A DNA stretch of 39,236 nucleotides from an uncultured Candidatus Saccharibacteria bacterium (GTDB lineage: Bacteria > Patescibacteriota > Minisyncoccia > Phycocordibacterales > UBA9973). Positions 2,761 to 17,243 of this stretch are shown here, one piece after another; the stretch's first letter is position 1; every line of letters starts with the position of its first letter. The stretch is taken from NCBI GenBank assembly GCA_964398205.1, contig CAYNLU010000006.1, positions 1 through 39,236 on the forward strand. The letters are read 5' to 3'. The translations under genes were made by a program, and so were the position numbers. Below the pieces are notes generated by a model, which was not told where the DNA came from, did no database searches, and saw nothing but the letters and a program-made list of their open reading frames with translations.

Positions 2761-4002
2761 TTATTTCTTATTTCTTCTTAGAAAAGCTGGTACAGCAGAC
2801 CAATCGTCGCCGTCATCATCGATAATGATTTCTTCTACTGGTTCTGGTTTTTTCTCAATCTTTTTTATGAAATCGTTATTGATTGGATTTGTATTAATGT
2901 TGATATTTGGATTTAGGGAATTGTGGATTCTACCTTTATCGATAACACTTTCTACTTTTTCTCTAATTACTTCTTTTTTCTCTTCAACAACTTTAGGTTT
3001 TTCTACGACGTCAGGCATAGCGGTAAATAAAGTTTTCTTTGGTAAATCAGTAGGGAAGTTAGTAGCAATAACTGTAACCTTGATTTCACCTTTCTTTAGT
3101 TTTTGATCATTAATAGTACCGAAAATAACTTTTGCGTCTTTATCGATAGATTCAGTAATCATTTTAGCTGCTTCTTGAATTTCGTGAATAGTTAAGTCGT
3201 CTCCTCCAGAAATAGCAAAGAGTACTCCTTTTGCTCCATGAATAGAAACTTCGAGTAGAGGAGAATTAATAGCTTGAACAGCAGCCTTTTCAGCACGATT
3301 TTCGCCTGAAGCAAGCCCAATACCCATAAGCGCACTACCTGCATCAGACATAACTGCACGTATATCCGCAAAGTCTACGTTGATAATACCTGGAGTAGTA
3401 ATAAGATCTGAAATACCTTCTACGGCTTGACGTAATACGTCGTCACAAATAGCGAAAGCATCTTTGAAATTTGTACTTTTTTCTGAGATTTGAAGTAATT
3501 TGTCGTTAGGAATAGTGATAAGCGCATCTACTTCATGAGCTAATTCTTCAATACCTTTTTCAGCTAAACGTGAACGATGTTGCCCTTCGAAGAAGAAAGG
3601 TTTAGTAACTACGCCTACAGTTAATATTCCTTGTTCTTTTGCGCAACGTGCGATAATTGGAGCGGCCCCTGTGCCTGTACCTCCACCCATACCACAAGCG
3701 ATAAAAATCATATCAGCACCTTTGATAACGTCTTGAATTTCTGCTTTAGTTTCTTCGGCAGCCTTTTTACCAATTTCAGGATTCATTCCAGCACCGAGAC
3801 CTTTAGTTAAATTTTTTCCAATATGAATTTTTTTCTCTGCGAGAGAGTTGTGCAAATCTTGAGTATCAGTATTCATCGCAATGAAGGTCACACCTTTTAC
3901 TTTTGAGTTAATCATATGATTAACAGCATTCTTTCCAGAACCTCCAACTCCGATAACAACTATACGAGCAAAACTTTCTATTTCAGGGTTTACTTTAGGC
4001 AT
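2761..4002 (-). CDS. ftsZ: Cell division GTPase FtsZ
   Basis: [21 protein letters not shown] tubulin signature, long low-complexity C-terminal tail. Confidence 0.97.
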
Positions 4003-5923: not shown

Positions 5924-5952
5924 TTGATTTTTAACCCCAAAAAAGTTATGAT
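5924..5952 (+). promoter_or_regulatory. greA promoter TTGATT-17-TATGAT
   Basis: -35 at 5924-5929, -10 at 5947-5952, ATG 5960 lies 7 nt after the -10. Confidence 0.5.
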
Positions 5953-5959
5953 ATGGATT

Positions 5960-6427
5960 ATGGATAAAACAGCAGATTATATAACAAAAGAAAAAAAATT
6001 GGCCTTAGAACAAGAACTTGAAGAGTTAAAAGGCCCAAAAAGAAAAGAAATTATAAATAGATTAGAATATGCAAAATCCCTTGGAGATTTGTCAGAAAAC
6101 GCGGAATATCATCAAGCTCGTGAAGATCAAGGAGTATTAGAAGAGCAAATAAAGAAAATCGAACATATCTTAAAAGTTTCTCATATCGTAGAAGCTAAGC
6201 ACGGAGATACTATTTCTATAGGTTCTAAAGTTACTGTTACTAAAGAAGATTCTAAAGAAAAGTTAGTTTATACTATAGTTGGTTCTGAAGAATCAGATTC
6301 ATCTTCTGGTAAAATCTCAAATCGTTCACCTTTTGGTAGCGCTCTTTTCGGTAAGAAAAAAGGAGATAAAATTGAATTTAAAACTCCGAAAGGAATAGTG
6401 CATTATAAAATTATTGATGTAGCTTAA
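5960..6427 (+). CDS. greA: Transcription elongation factor GreA
   Basis: Coiled-coil N-domain with DLSENAEYHQAREDQ, and C-domain SNRSPFGSALFGKKKGDKIEF. Confidence 0.9.
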   Translation: MDKTADYITKEKKLALEQELEELKGPKRKEIINRLEYAKSLGDLSENAEYHQAREDQGVLEEQIKKIEHILKVSHIVEAKHGDTISIGSKVTVTKEDSKEKLVYTIVGSEESDSSSGKISNRSPFGSALFGKKKGDKIEFKTPKGIVHYKIIDVA

Positions 6428-8441: not shown

Positions 8442-8477
8442 GTATTTACTTATCCACAGATTTGATTGATTTAGGGT

Positions 8478-13318: not shown

Positions 13319-13344
13319 AAACGCTGTGGAAAAGCTCGCTTAAC

Positions 13345-13392
13345 TTTTCGGTATATTTTCGGTTATAATATATTTGTAGCAAAAAATTTGCT
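13345..13392 (+). promoter_or_regulatory. Promoter/operator region of the LexA-methyltransferase gene
   Basis: Direct repeat TTTTCGGT at 13345 and 13356; TATAAT 13364-13369; palindrome AGCAAA-AAA-TTTGCT 13378-13392 between the -10 and the ATG. Confidence 0.4.
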
Positions 13393-13398
13393 TAATTT

Positions 13399-14976
13399 AT
13401 GTCAAACCTTACAAAAAAACAAAAAGAAGTTTTTGACTTCATAAATATTTATATATCTGAAAATGGTATCTCTCCAACTATTGAAGAAATTAAAAAAAAA
13501 TTAAAATTAAAAGCAGTTTCTACTGTTCATGAACATATTAATTCTCTTAAAAAACAAGGCTATTTATTTAAATCTGAAAATTCTTCAAGGAGTTTGAAAT
13601 TAAAAAAAGAAATAAAGTCAATTGTAGAAATCCCAATAATCGGGAGCATAAAAGCGGGATACCCTTTGCCTGCAATTGAAGAAAGAGATGGTTCTGTTTC
13701 TGTAATAAATTCTCAAATTAAAACAGCAGAGGGTTATTATGCTCTCCGTGTTGTAGGTGATTCCATGATAGGTGACGGTATTTTTGACGGTGATATTGTT
13801 GTTATTAAGCATCAAACATCAGCAGAAAATGGACAAACCGTTGTTGCTATTATTGATGATAACGAAGCTACTCTTAAAAGAATTTATAAAAAAGGAAAGG
13901 GTTTTGAACTTGTAGCAAGAAATCCTAAAATGCCGACACTATTTAGTACTGATGTACAAGTCAGGGGAGTCGTTATTCAAGTTATTAGCAACCCAAATAA
14001 TGAATCTAAAGAAACACATAAAAATAATAAAAAACATGGATTTAAAACAATCGATCTTTTTGCTGGTGTTGGTGGAATTCGTATCGGTTTTGAAAAAGCG
14101 GGTTTTAAGACTGTTTTCGCAAATGACTTTGAAGCTCAATGCAGAGATACTTATGATTTAAATTTTAAAGATTCAAAATTAGTTGTTGAAGATATAAGAA
14201 AAATTGATGTAGATGATTTACCTAAATTTGATTTTCTTTTAGGTGGTTTTCCTTGCCAGGCTTTTTCTATTGCAGGATATAGACAGGGATTTAATGATGA
14301 AAAAGGTAGAGGAAATTTATTTTTTGATATTGTTCGTATTTTGAAAGCAAAAAAACCAGAAGGTTTTCTTTTAGAGAATGTAAAAAATTTAAAAAGCCAT
14401 GACGGAGGTAAAACTTTTGAAATTATAGAAGATGCATTAAAAGATCTTGGTTATCATGTAAAAGTTAAAGTGTTAAATACAATGGAATATGGAAATATTC
14501 CTCAAAATCGTGAAAGAATTTATATTGTCGGTTTTAGAAATAAATTGTATTCAGATAGATTTGAATTTCCTGGTCCAATTAAATTGACTACAAAAATTAC
14601 TGATTTGCTCGAAAAGAATGTTTCGGAAAAATATTATTACAATAATAAACCTTTATTTGAAAAACTTAAAAATTCAGTAAAAGAAGAAGGAAAAGTTTAT
14701 CAATGGCGTAGGCAGTATGTTAGAGAAAATAAGAGCGGTGTTTGTCCAACATTAACTGCAAATATGGGAACAGGAGGACATAATGTTCCAATTATTAAAG
14801 ACAAGAAGGGAATAAGAAAACTAACCCCTTTAGAGTGTTTTAAAATTCAAGGTTTTCCTGAAAACTATATTTTACCAAAAATTTCTGATTCTGCTCTTTA
14901 TAAACAAGCAGGAAATTCTGTGAGCGTCCCCGTTGTTGAGGCTGTAGCAAAGCAAATGATGAAAGCTATGGAGTAG
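13399..14976 (+). CDS. Fusion protein: LexA-type repressor (wHTH + S24 autopeptidase) and C5-cytosine DNA methyltransferase
   Basis: aa 1-197 LexA-like (A86-G87, S122 in GDSM, K160). aa 215-525 carry MTase motifs DLFAGVGG, GFPCQAFS, ENV, QNRERIYIVGF, GNSVSVPV. One uninterrupted ORF. Confidence 0.9.
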   Translation: MSNLTKKQKEVFDFINIYISENGISPTIEEIKKKLKLKAVSTVHEHINSLKKQGYLFKSENSSRSLKLKKEIKSIVEIPIIGSIKAGYPLPAIEERDGSVSVINSQIKTAEGYYALRVVGDSMIGDGIFDGDIVVIKHQTSAENGQTVVAIIDDNEATLKRIYKKGKGFELVARNPKMPTLFSTDVQVRGVVIQVISNPNNESKETHKNNKKHGFKTIDLFAGVGGIRIGFEKAGFKTVFANDFEAQCRDTYDLNFKDSKLVVEDIRKIDVDDLPKFDFLLGGFPCQAFSIAGYRQGFNDEKGRGNLFFDIVRILKAKKPEGFLLENVKNLKSHDGGKTFEIIEDALKDLGYHVKVKVLNTMEYGNIPQNRERIYIVGFRNKLYSDRFEFPGPIKLTTKITDLLEKNVSEKYYYNNKPLFEKLKNSVKEEGKVYQWRRQYVRENKSGVCPTLTANMGTGGHNVPIIKDKKGIRKLTPLECFKIQGFPENYILPKISDSALYKQAGNSVSVPVVEAVAKQMMKAME

Positions 14977-16036: not shown

Positions 16037-16257
16037 ATATAAATATAATATATTCCATTATGTATTATTCCAAATTGTCATATATAAAAATTATTATAGA
16101 ATTAATATGTTTTTACGCTTGTGGCCACAATAATTTTCTTTTCGTCAAAAGAAAATTTTCCAGCCCCGGACGTGAACTATTTTTATTGCTATAAAAATAT
16201 GCTTCCGTCTTCACATTTCGCTCGTATGCAAAGCAGTTTGCATACTTTTCGCTCATG

Positions 16258-16329
16258 TGACTCTACAGGGAATCGAACCCTGATTACCGCCTTGAGAAGG
16301 CGATGTCCTAACCGTTAGACGATAGAGCC
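16258..16329 (-). tRNA. tRNA-Glu: tRNA-Glu (anticodon CUC), no encoded CCA
   Basis: GGCTCTA acceptor pairs with TAGAGTC; anticodon arm TCGCC-TTCTCAA-GGCGG; T arm CAGGG-TTCGATT-CCCTG; close to canonical tRNA-Glu. Confidence 0.93.
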
Positions 16330-16742: not shown

Positions 16743-17243
16743 CTAAGCCGTTTGCAACTGCTTTTGGTTCTCATTTTTGAAAATACCTTTGGCGAGAGAA
16801 TATGGTTCTATCTCCAAAATTTCCCAATGAATCATTTTTCCAGTATTGCGACAAAGGTAAGAACCCTTGTCTCCAACTTTTTTGCCCAGTATAGCTTGCG
16901 CTAATTGGCAACTTACAGAAACACTTGCACTTTTGCCAATGCAAGCAGCATCAATAAAAATTTTCTTACGTTTACCATTAACTAGAAGTAAGACCCCGTT
17001 TCCCAATAAACATTGCTCAGACTGGTCTTTAATCTGGGCGATGGGTGCTTTTAACAATAAACTAAGCTGTATTGCTTCATTGTGTAAAGCAATTTTTCTT
17101 AATCTGTATTCTTCGAAAGTCTGAGAATGGGGATCTGTGGTCTCCATTGCTTCTCCTATTTCTGCTTCTTCTTTTAAAGTTGCCTCCAACTTTTTTAGTA
17201 AGAATTTGTGAGTGTTTTGTGGTATAGCTTTGACGATACTCAT
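16743..17243 (-). CDS. GreA/GreB-family paralog (Gfh/Rnk-like)
   Basis: C-terminal SVSCQLAQAILGKKVGDKGSY...WEILEIE matches the Gre C-domain; N-terminal helical hairpin. Confidence 0.7.
   Translation of the reverse strand: MSIVKAIPQNTHKFLLKKLEATLKEEAEIGEAMETTDPHSQTFEEYRLRKIALHNEAIQLSLLLKAPIAQIKDQSEQCLLGNGVLLLVNGKRKKIFIDAACIGKSASVSVSCQLAQAILGKKVGDKGSYLCRNTGKMIHWEILEIEPYSLAKGIFKNENQKQLQTA

Follow-up and report, generated by a model that had tools for sequence, protein, structure and literature searches.

A single gene from an uncultured member of the Patescibacteria encodes a complete LexA repressor joined to a complete C5-cytosine DNA methyltransferase (MTase). The gene (lexA::C5-MTase; 525 amino acids [aa]) lies on contig CAYNLU010000006.1 of assembly GCA_964398205.1, of which a stretch of 39,236 nucleotides (nt; referred to here as the window) was analyzed, and it belongs to a Type II restriction-modification (R-M) module. 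The presence of both complete parts in a single frame was confirmed, and the C5 fusion turned out to be part of a very large and recurrent class of LexA-MTase proteins in which at least five unrelated DNA-MTase families are represented. On the basis of conserved residues, a shared promoter element, and the genomic context, we consider it reasonably probable that the fusion is an autorepressed, SOS-inducible methylase that would raise the ratio of methylase (M) to restriction endonuclease (REase or R) after DNA damage.

R-M systems must balance the killing of foreign DNA against the cutting of their own chromosome. Known means of control are controller (C) proteins, antisense RNA, methylation of promoters, and short helix-turn-helix (HTH) extensions on methylases; in Type I systems only, restriction is also alleviated by proteolysis after DNA damage. 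Patescibacteria (also known as the candidate phyla radiation [CPR]) are uncultivated, ultrasmall bacteria with tiny genomes that have been reported to rely heavily on R-M for defense, and their SOS network has barely been explored. A methylase fused to an SOS sensor would, if this reading is correct, represent a new control principle, in which the damage signal arising from self-restriction feeds back on protective methylation.

A complete LexA and a complete C5 methyltransferase in one reading frame

The earlier note on this DNA, made from the sequence alone, had described an uninterrupted 525-codon open reading frame with a LexA winged HTH, a self-cleaving S24 peptidase (Ala86-Gly87, Ser122, and Lys160), and a full C5-MTase motif set. 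These assignments and their nucleotide positions were all correct, and the frame contains no internal stops (Table 1). In addition to the Pfam matches, aa 1 to 198 scored 174 bits against the NCBIfam lexA equivalog TIGR00498 (cutoff, 111 bits), and the MTase half scored 348 bits for the NCBIfam dcm family (TIGR00675) and 431 bits for PADLOC MTase_II. The N-terminal 200 residues aligned over their full length with LexA proteins of known structure (3k2z from Thermotoga, E = 1.9e-29; Escherichia coli LexA 1jhh, similar); together with the Peptidase_S24 match, this alignment supports the S24 fold, for which the note had named profile searches as a possible refutation. The recognition-helix motif of the fused LexA is S-T-V-H-E-H-I. 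The match of the MTase half to PF00145 spans positions 1 to 323 of the 324-position profile, the closest solved structure is M.HhaI (207 bits), and the motif set is complete (i.e., DLFAGVGG [motif I], GFPCQ with Cys286 [IV], ENV [VI], QNRER [VIII], and GNSVSVPV [X]). Met178 is the only in-frame ATG, GTG, or TTG codon within aa 150 to 240, so separate initiation of the MTase is impossible, as the note had also argued.

Table 1. Positions of the fusion gene, its promoter elements, and the associated R-M and flanking features in the window
Feature	Position (nt)	Strand	Evidence or remark
DnaA-box-like 9-mer TGTGGAAAA, 5' of the -35 element	13325..13333	+	One mismatch to TGTGGATAA (= TTATCCACA on the opposite strand)
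Sigma-70-type promoter	13340..13369	+	-35 TTAACT (13340-13345), 18-nt spacer, -10 TATAAT (13364-13369)
Putative LexA operator (SOS box)	13347..13362	+	Direct repeat TTCGG-N6-TTCGG, 11-bp period, within the promoter spacer
Short leader	13370..13398	+	Conserved TGTAGC element, no obvious Shine-Dalgarno sequence
lexA::C5-MTase fusion gene	13399..14976	+	525 aa; ATG start, TAG stop, zero internal stops
LexA winged-HTH DNA-binding domain, aa 1-64	13399..13590	+	Pfam PF01726 LexA_DNA_bind, 3.9e-16
Peptidase S24 domain, aa 79-193	13633..13977	+	Pfam PF00717, 7.9e-29
Predicted self-cleavage site Ala86-Gly87, GCG GGA	13654..13659	+	Direct sequence reading
Ser122, codon TCC	13762-13764	+	S24 dyad
Lys160, codon AAA	13876-13878	+	S24 dyad
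Interdomain linker, aa 199-214 (16 aa)	13993..14040	+	Asn/Lys/Glu-rich
C5-cytosine MTase domain, aa 215-521	14041..14961	+	Pfam PF00145 DNA_methylase, 5e-93
Motif I DLFAGVGG, first codon GAT	14053	+	
Catalytic Cys286, codon TGC	14254-14256	+	
Candidate Type II REase, 277 aa	14980..15813	-	Convergent, stop 3 nt from the MTase stop; PADLOC REase_II PDLC03411, E = 2.9e-11
Controller (C) protein, 73 aa	15815..16036	-	Pfam HTH_3, 3.1e-13; weak PADLOC Control_protein matches
C-box-like repeat TTGGAATAATACATAATGGAATA, C/R promoter region	16051..16073	-	Single copy in the window
tRNA-Glu(CTC)	16257..16329	-	Flanks the module, not part of the system

The search for orthologous fusions proposed in the note was run and yielded a large family. 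Among the matches listed from 5.8 billion proteins, clustered at 90% identity, at least 120 clusters (76 to 100% identical; approximately 525 aa) contain all three Pfam domains; in the databases they are named "transcriptional repressor LexA" or "DNA (cytosine-5)-methyltransferase 1." With one genome per GTDB species, relatives are encoded in 160 stretches of DNA, and full-length fusions account for 67 of the best 80. Across all loci retrieved (designated L### in this analysis), the C5 fusion occurs in at least 110 assemblies and some form of fused LexA in at least 135. Complete or nearly complete genomes with a fusion include OZ246398.1 (743 kb), CAZNOH010000001.1 (654 kb), and JBAZVG010000001.1 (813 kb). 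According to the record titles, the fusions belong to Nomurabacteria, Giovannonibacteria, Falkowbacteria, Uhrbacteria, Staskawiczbacteria, Vogelbacteria, Moranbacteria, and Taylorbacteria; all organism labels used here are record titles, several of which (e.g., "Saccharibacteria" and "Gammaproteobacteria" in TPA [third-party annotation] assemblies) look unreliable.

In an alignment of 66 species-level orthologues, Ala86, Gly87, Ser122, Lys160, and Cys286 are invariant in 66 of 66 sequences, while identity among the LexA halves ranges from 47 to 85%. This pattern suggests that the cleavage chemistry is kept under strong purifying selection and that selection also acts on MTase catalysis. The linker has a mean conservation of 0.25, compared with 0.64 to 0.84 in the domains, and varies from 14 to 24 aa in length. 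The identities of the LexA and MTase halves covary (Spearman coefficient, 0.82; 2,145 pairs), which indicates that the fusion is inherited as a unit.

These orthologues also bear on an artifactual origin, in which lexA and the MTase gene would be separate genes that were joined only by a sequencing or assembly error (a lost stop codon or a frameshift). The local sequence contains an out-of-frame ATG at 14036 that, together with a 1-nt change in an A-run, would generate a start resembling that of a standalone MTase (i.e., MDLK(T)IDLF...). However, independent projects have yielded the same uninterrupted frame, which is present in more than 120 clusters and no fewer than 110 assemblies; the orthologues also conserve the junction (...KHGFKTIDLFAG...), and the linker lacks Met in 63 of the 66. 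The orthologues thus refute an error of this kind, and we give it essentially no credence.

A putative SOS box in the promoter of the fusion

The sigma-70-type promoter upstream of the fusion is the best promoter-like match of the region (10 of 12 positions). The 80 bp 5' of the gene are conserved across loci with differing flanking genes, and an anchored alignment gave a constant order of elements (i.e., the TGTGGATAA element, the -35 element, TTCGG-N6-TTCGG, TATAAT, and the conserved leader). In 808 kb of sequence, 0.35 copies of the direct repeat TTCGG-N6-TTCGG would be expected by chance; approximately 57 were found at one constant position 5' of fusions, and practically none lay elsewhere. 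We also scanned all GTDB genomes for TTTCGG-N6-TTCGGTTATAAT; the loci were selected by the motif itself, and the resulting counts are minimum values. The genes located 3' of the motif were the C5 fusion (at least about 55 loci), standalone lexA genes of 203 to 213 aa, LexA fusions to other MTases, and recA (L100 and L126; Pfam RecA, 442 and 447 bits), the last three with the same promoter architecture as the C5 fusion. No recA gene is located within the window itself. Among loci chosen by protein similarity, the strict repeat was found within 150 bp upstream of 33 of 52 fused genes, 16 of 30 S-type standalone lexA genes, and 7 of 9 H-type standalone lexA genes.

Given its occurrence also at recA and at standalone lexA genes of this group, TTCGG-N6-TTCGG is likely the SOS box of Patescibacteria, with LexA as its probable ligand. 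For the same reason, the promoter provides independent support for a coupling of the fusion to the SOS response. The LexA of Patescibacteria was previously reported by the Erill laboratory as one lineage that evolved a direct-repeat motif (PMC7739468).

The scan also placed the motif 5' of a dinB-type polymerase gene in a metagenome-assembled genome (MAG) labeled Latescibacterota (L188) and 5' of a GC-rich lexA gene in a MAG labeled Geothermincolia (L159). Either the motif is used beyond Patescibacteria or these contigs are misbinned.

Of 195 distinct SOS-box sites, 94 have a perfect DnaA-box 9-mer (TTATCCACA/TGTGGATAA, in either orientation) at position -22 or -25 relative to the first TTCGG, against a background of 0.0067 per 70 bp. 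It was seen at lexA, lexA::MTase, and recA promoters (L100, L146, L166, L282, L284, and most fusion loci). This linkage suggests that DnaA or another factor may coregulate SOS promoters in Patescibacteria, and the candidate SOS box and the linked DnaA-box-like element are starting points for regulon reconstruction. Elsewhere in the window, one of two perfect DnaA-box 9-mers (8450-8458, minus strand) is located approximately 100 bp 5' of mraZ (8564), at the head of the dcw cluster; the count of the 9-mer in the whole window is not above chance.

The leader between the promoter and the start codon is conserved at the DNA level across orthologous loci (aTTGTAGCgcAAAt...GCAAT-ATG; aTTGTAGCgcAAAtagaTTTTtaAtGCAAT) and includes a weak inverted repeat (ATTGyA...TrCAAT). 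The leader may act as an additional operator, as an RNA element, or in the control of translation.

LexA fused to other methylases and LexA adjacent to R-M genes

The LexA half was searched against 1.84 billion cluster representatives, and the 150 matches were analyzed together with the window protein (151 sequences). The approximately 70 best matches are mostly proteins of 300 to 890 aa with an N-terminal LexA module, and 53 of the 151 sequences extend at the C terminus by 60 aa or more. Pfam scanning of 57 long representatives identified LexA_DNA_bind and Peptidase_S24 in every one of them. Their C-terminal domains are of the N6_N4_Mtase (29 members), Eco57I (7 members), Dam (D12; 5 members), N6_Mtase (5 members), MmeI (4 members), and C5 (3 members) types. 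The Gly of the cleavage site and the catalytic Ser and Lys are invariant in 57 of 57 of these diverse fusions, and the Ala is at least 90% conserved. In a crude neighbor-joining tree of LexA domains, the fused forms fall mainly into two neighboring groups, in which the methylase families are intermixed, and the tree needs no fewer than 11 switches between fusion and nonfusion; this implies repeated fusion or domain swapping. When the search was seeded with a standalone LexA, fused forms still represented 52 of the best 80 loci. In the examples of other fusion types that we inspected, a small gene abuts the 3' end of the fusion; these adjoining genes produced no Pfam matches. The architecture in the earlier note holds, but the view of the fusion as an isolated case does not.

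Two further types of LexA fusion were seen. A Yanofskybacteria MAG encodes LexA and S24 domains followed by a C-terminal HTH_17 (excisionase-like) domain (L180, 2353-3219). The C-terminal part of a 777-aa representative (P0127) clusters with C5 MTases and additionally carries an NPPF motif, and this protein may hold two methylase modules.

LexA-type genes are also located beside R-M genes without being fused to them. In one locus (L076, 197-2953), a gene for a 194-aa LexA-like protein is divergent from a standalone orthologue of the window methylase, which is followed by an NgoFVII-like enzyme. In a second (L177, 1104-3783), the gene for a 204-aa LexA and a C5 methylase gene diverge, with RE_HpaII (356 bits) located after the methylase, and in a third (L197, 138-3217), RE_AlwI, an N6_N4 methylase, and LexA are arranged in this order on one strand. 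In a fourth (L039, 340-3368, minus strand), an S24 repressor is the first gene of an operon that also includes an N6_N4 methylase and RE_TdeIII, 2.6 kb from the C5 fusion. In our view, no other observation argues as strongly for a regulatory role of the repressor in R-M, and against a chance arrangement, as the association of unfused LexA with unrelated R-M systems. The occurrence of fused LexA in at least 135 assemblies and with at least five MTase families, together with unfused LexA beside HpaII-, AlwI-, TdeIII-, and NgoFVII-type systems, argues for function over accident.

The conservation among these fusions is relevant to a reading in which the LexA half is a constitutive autoregulatory or dimerization module, similar to that of SsoII-type enzymes, with a cleavage chemistry that is retained by descent and has no use in the SOS response. 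The MTases M.SsoII and M.Ecl18kI regulate their own R-M systems through a protease-free N-terminal DNA-binding region (PMC3978073, PMC2760811), and self-cleavage of the fusion is deduced from its residues only. However, the Ala-Gly, Ser, and Lys residues are invariant in the 66 orthologues, as are the Gly, Ser, and Lys residues in the 57 other fusions, and the operator-like element is the same as that at recA. We regard a purely constitutive role as improbable.

The restriction-modification module

The note had assigned the MTase to an R-M system, and the genes downstream agree with this assignment (i.e., a convergent gene with an REase_II match, an HTH_3-type C protein, and a conserved C-box-like repeat; Table 1). 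The 277-aa product of the convergent gene had no matches in Pfam or in a sequence search of the PDB. A convergent gene begins this arm of the module 3 to 15 bp past the methylase stop codon in nearly every orthologous locus. Orthologues of the C protein (74 to 83% identical) are encoded directly upstream of the R gene in approximately 16 loci. The C-box-like repeat TTGGAATAATACATAATGGAATA, which overlaps a promoter-like site on the minus strand (16073-16045), is conserved 5' of the C genes in 14 other loci; its conserved form across 15 loci is TTGGAATAATACAnAATGGAATA, and it is a candidate C-box. No TTCGG repeat was found upstream of the R or C genes. Because R has its own C protein, LexA is expected to control only M.

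Genes from no fewer than seven unrelated families (i.e., RE_Bsp6I-like enzymes in 24 loci, NgoFVII-like enzymes, PD-(D/E)XK enzymes, the family of the window enzyme in 8 loci, and other, unannotated families) fill the R slot of the orthologous loci, some next to the same C protein and some without it, while the methylases upstream of these differing slots are 73 to 93% identical. Besides the Bsp6I and NgoFVII types, other REase_II families were matched in this slot. Standalone orthologues of the methylase (61 to 68% identical) are accompanied by the same partner families in other genomes. The arrangement looks like cassette-style swapping of isoschizomeric endonucleases. The specificities commonly cited for Bsp6I and NgoFVII are GCNGC and GCSGC, respectively. 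Given these partner types, GCNGC-type recognition is our best guess for the module. The sites GCNGC, GCGC, and GGCC are each depleted by approximately 2 standard deviations in the window, and site avoidance does not discriminate among the three.

Apparent mobility and genomic surroundings of the module

A comparison of the window with a second locus (L003) showed different degrees of divergence inside and outside the module. The fusion proteins are 88% identical over their whole length (93% in the MTase half and 82% in the LexA half) and the C proteins 78%, while the PBP and MurF proteins are 48 and 46% identical, respectively; the two loci have R genes of different families. In the window, the module is situated between murF and tRNA-Glu(CTC), an order shared with L003 and L023, in which MurF is 46 to 49% identical and the R families differ. 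Genes for tRNAs are located 0.6 to 2.3 kb beyond the fusion, at the R/C end, in approximately 16 of 50 loci. These are tRNA-Glu(CTC) in L003 (8738-8810), L023 (8863-8938), L031 (9225-9297), and L004 (3464-3538) and tRNA-Gln, tRNA-Ser, or tRNA-Lys elsewhere. The tRNA-Glu(CTC) gene is a possible landmark of integration or recombination. On the basis of these comparisons, horizontal spread or recombination seems to have distributed the module among Patescibacteria, and its R gene seems to be exchanged like a cassette. The G+C content of the fusion (0.30) does not contrast with that of the window (0.32).

Two other origins were rejected. A conserved native lexA locus next to murF is inconsistent with the presence of murF nearby in only approximately five loci. 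For a phage origin, the viral contigs of IMG/VR were searched; they contained zero fusions and one standalone MTase at 53% identity.

Coexistence of fused and standalone LexA

A distinct housekeeping-type LexA (199 to 218 aa) is encoded as a standalone protein in loci L279 to L288 (e.g., L282 from position 2866 and L284 from position 3492). It is characterized by motifs such as LAGLITAGEPIEAIE and KGESMIEDG, with GESM replacing GDSM around the catalytic Ser, and most of its genes have the same SOS-box promoter. In at least two MAGs, a C5 fusion co-occurs with a housekeeping-type LexA that has its own SOS box (UBA917, L279 and L024; Modern_marine.mb.172, L285 and L226). At least in these MAGs, the fused protein is an additional, R-M-associated paralogue. 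A third MAG (C21) encodes a housekeeping-type LexA (L282) and the R-M-linked LexA of L076. The proposal that the fused LexA is the only LexA of the cell was withdrawn on the evidence of the two MAGs with both genes; for other genomes it is not disproved. An apparent mutual exclusivity of fused and standalone LexA had resulted from peptide patterns that were blind to the housekeeping type. The recognition-helix motif ST(I/V)HEH is common to the fused, S-type, and H-type LexA of Patescibacteria, which makes cross-binding at all SOS boxes plausible.

These observations are pertinent to a reading in which the fusion is mainly an SOS master repressor, perhaps the sole one, that would bind all SOS boxes, including that of recA. 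Loss of the R-M module would then remove LexA and render the SOS response constitutive, a regulatory addiction on top of classical postsegregational killing. The shared recognition helix, the occurrence of one and the same box at fused genes, standalone lexA genes, and recA, the predominance of fused genes among LexA loci (52 of the best 80) and among the top 70 representatives, and the apparent mobility of the module (i.e., the high identity of the fusion relative to MurF and PBP) are all compatible with such a role. It is opposed by the separate housekeeping-type LexA in UBA917 and Modern_marine.mb.172 and by the two LexA genes of C21, and the mutual exclusivity that had seemed to favor it proved to be an artifact of the search patterns. 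We judge a hostage arrangement of this kind to be unlikely.

Proposed mechanism

If the fusion is an SOS-inducible methylase, its operation can be outlined as follows. The protein would dimerize through its S24 domain and bind TTCGG-N6-TTCGG between its own -35 and -10 elements, so that methylase synthesis would be autorepressed and the repressor concentration would report the methylase concentration one to one, as in the SsoII-type logic. DNA damage, including breaks made by the cognate REase at unmethylated sites, would activate RecA; the repressor would then cut itself at Ala86-Gly87, and the promoter would open. The methylase would build up in the form of newly made protein and of the S24-MTase fragment, while R would not be induced, as it lacks an SOS box and answers to its own C protein. 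The net effect would be a damage-triggered rise in the M:R ratio, that is, a hard-wired feedback amounting to restriction alleviation for a Type II system. The architecture of the fusion and its conservation, the R-M context, the common operator-like element, and the recurrence of the fusion are observations; binding to the repeat, cleavage stimulated by RecA, methylase activity after cleavage, and the consequences for the cell are inferred.

Several considerations weigh against the scheme. DNA binding, RecA responsiveness, and cleavage are read from conserved residues only, and the equation of TTCGG-N6-TTCGG with the published LexA motif of Patescibacteria derives from our own comparative evidence. 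Approximately 37% of the fused genes chosen by protein similarity have no strict match to the repeat. The AlphaFold2 model of the whole protein had a low confidence (mean predicted local distance difference test score, 63.7; S24 region, <50), which is attributable to an alignment restricted to close orthologues; the model was not used, and the domain arrangement could not be judged from it. Moreover, SOS-inducible transcription needs no fusion, as an SOS box alone would suffice, and the fusion may thus serve a posttranslational purpose. Possible reasons for the physical linkage are the one-to-one reporting of methylase or a cleavage-dependent change in its tethering, dimerization, or stability. 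In E. coli, the fragments of LexA are degraded by ClpXP and Lon after cleavage. If the fragments of the fusion were handled in the same way, cleavage could lower methylase levels.

The last point leads to an opposite outcome, namely, suicide or abortive infection, in which cleavage would mark the S24-MTase fragment for proteolysis, the methylase pool would collapse under severe damage or phage attack, and the stable endonuclease would kill the cell. Such a role would explain why physical fusion is needed over cotranscription. The repeated selection of fusion with unrelated MTase families points to a posttranslational function, R lies outside SOS control, and the degradation of cleaved LexA is established in E. 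coli. However, cleavage would also derepress the promoter and increase synthesis, the fusion may lack the degradation signals of E. coli LexA, and the unfused LexA-R-M arrangements, which show the same association, cannot act in this manner. We consider a suicide function to be quite unlikely.

A broader proposal, which we offer only tentatively and do not hold to be the probable case, is that LexA-type repressors, whether fused or adjacent, are a general control of Type II R-M in Patescibacteria and place R-M in the SOS network. The fusion would then act as a posttranslational switch of the methylase (i.e., of its tethering, oligomeric state, or stability) that leads to either damage-triggered alleviation or self-restriction, and the fused proteins would corepress recA and other SOS genes.

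Relationship to known regulatory systems

Among characterized enzymes, the SsoII-type C5 MTases (M.SsoII and M.Ecl18kI; the EcoRII and MspI types have also been reported) resemble the fusion most directly in their plan, as they are Type II C5 MTases with an N-terminal DNA-binding domain on a flexible linker. This domain binds an operator in its own promoter, so that the MTase level sets MTase transcription, and we propose the same for the fusion. However, the SsoII-type region is a simple HTH of approximately 70 aa without a protease, whereas the fusion has a 198-aa LexA with an S24 domain, and its SOS-box-like operator also occurs at recA. The R and M genes of SsoII are divergently oriented, and the MTase activates R as well; the R gene of the fusion locus, by contrast, is convergent with M and is paired with a C protein, and there is no TTCGG repeat near R or C. 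The fusion would thus function like the SsoII-type family but is not a member of it.

The LexA part shares its domain order, cleavage site, Ser/Lys dyad, and length with the LexA proteins of E. coli and Thermotoga maritima (PDB 1JHH, 3JSO, and 3K2Z). LexA also controls its own gene through an operator that recurs at recA, and the fusion has a matching sequence element in its own promoter. Canonical LexA, however, is a standalone protein that ends at approximately residue 200, whereas the 525-aa fusion continues into a 311-aa C-terminal enzyme. In addition, the classical LexA operator is palindromic, while the putative operator of the fusion is a direct repeat, and the fusion, unlike LexA, is part of an apparently mobile R-M module and coexists with another LexA in at least two MAGs.

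The small HTH_3 protein encoded before R and the conserved C-box-like repeat in its promoter are features shared with C-controlled Type II systems. In the classical C systems, the MTase has a simple promoter of its own or is affected by C, while the MTase of the fusion would have a separate, SOS-type layer of control. In Type I systems, restriction alleviation is triggered by unmodified sites that arise after damage or recombination (PMC4231737, PMC11109961). The outcome proposed for the fusion is equivalent, a shift from restriction to protection, but Type I alleviation relies on proteolysis of the restriction subunit (HsdR, degraded by ClpXP), whereas methylase induction is proposed here. 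Self-cleaving, RecA-responsive S24 repressors through which mobile elements read the SOS state of the host are known from phage lambda (CI) and the integrative and conjugative element SXT (SetR). As in these elements, the module would carry its own S24 repressor; CI and SetR, however, are separate proteins with an XRE-type HTH that control lysogeny or transfer, and they are neither fused to enzymes nor part of R-M systems.

The note had considered the architecture to be undescribed, and our literature search is consistent with this view within the searchable literature. No description of a LexA-methyltransferase fusion was found in the full-text literature searched, a coverage that did not extend to the study of the patescibacterial SOS response by Sanchez-Osuna et al. 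(2017), and the same literature yielded no comparable SOS-linked device for a Type II system. A 2025 review of R-M biology (270,000 characters) never mentions LexA. Each component is known; what is apparently new is their combination, along with the regulatory logic that follows from it. Within the biology of Patescibacteria/CPR, the LexA-MTase fusion stands out as a prominent trait that has apparently gone undescribed.

Other genes in the window

Just past the R-M module and the tRNA gene, the window encodes a 166-aa protein (16743-17243, minus strand) in which only a C-terminal GreA/GreB domain was matched, below the Pfam cutoff. A normal greA gene with both GreA domains is located at 5924-6427 on the plus strand.

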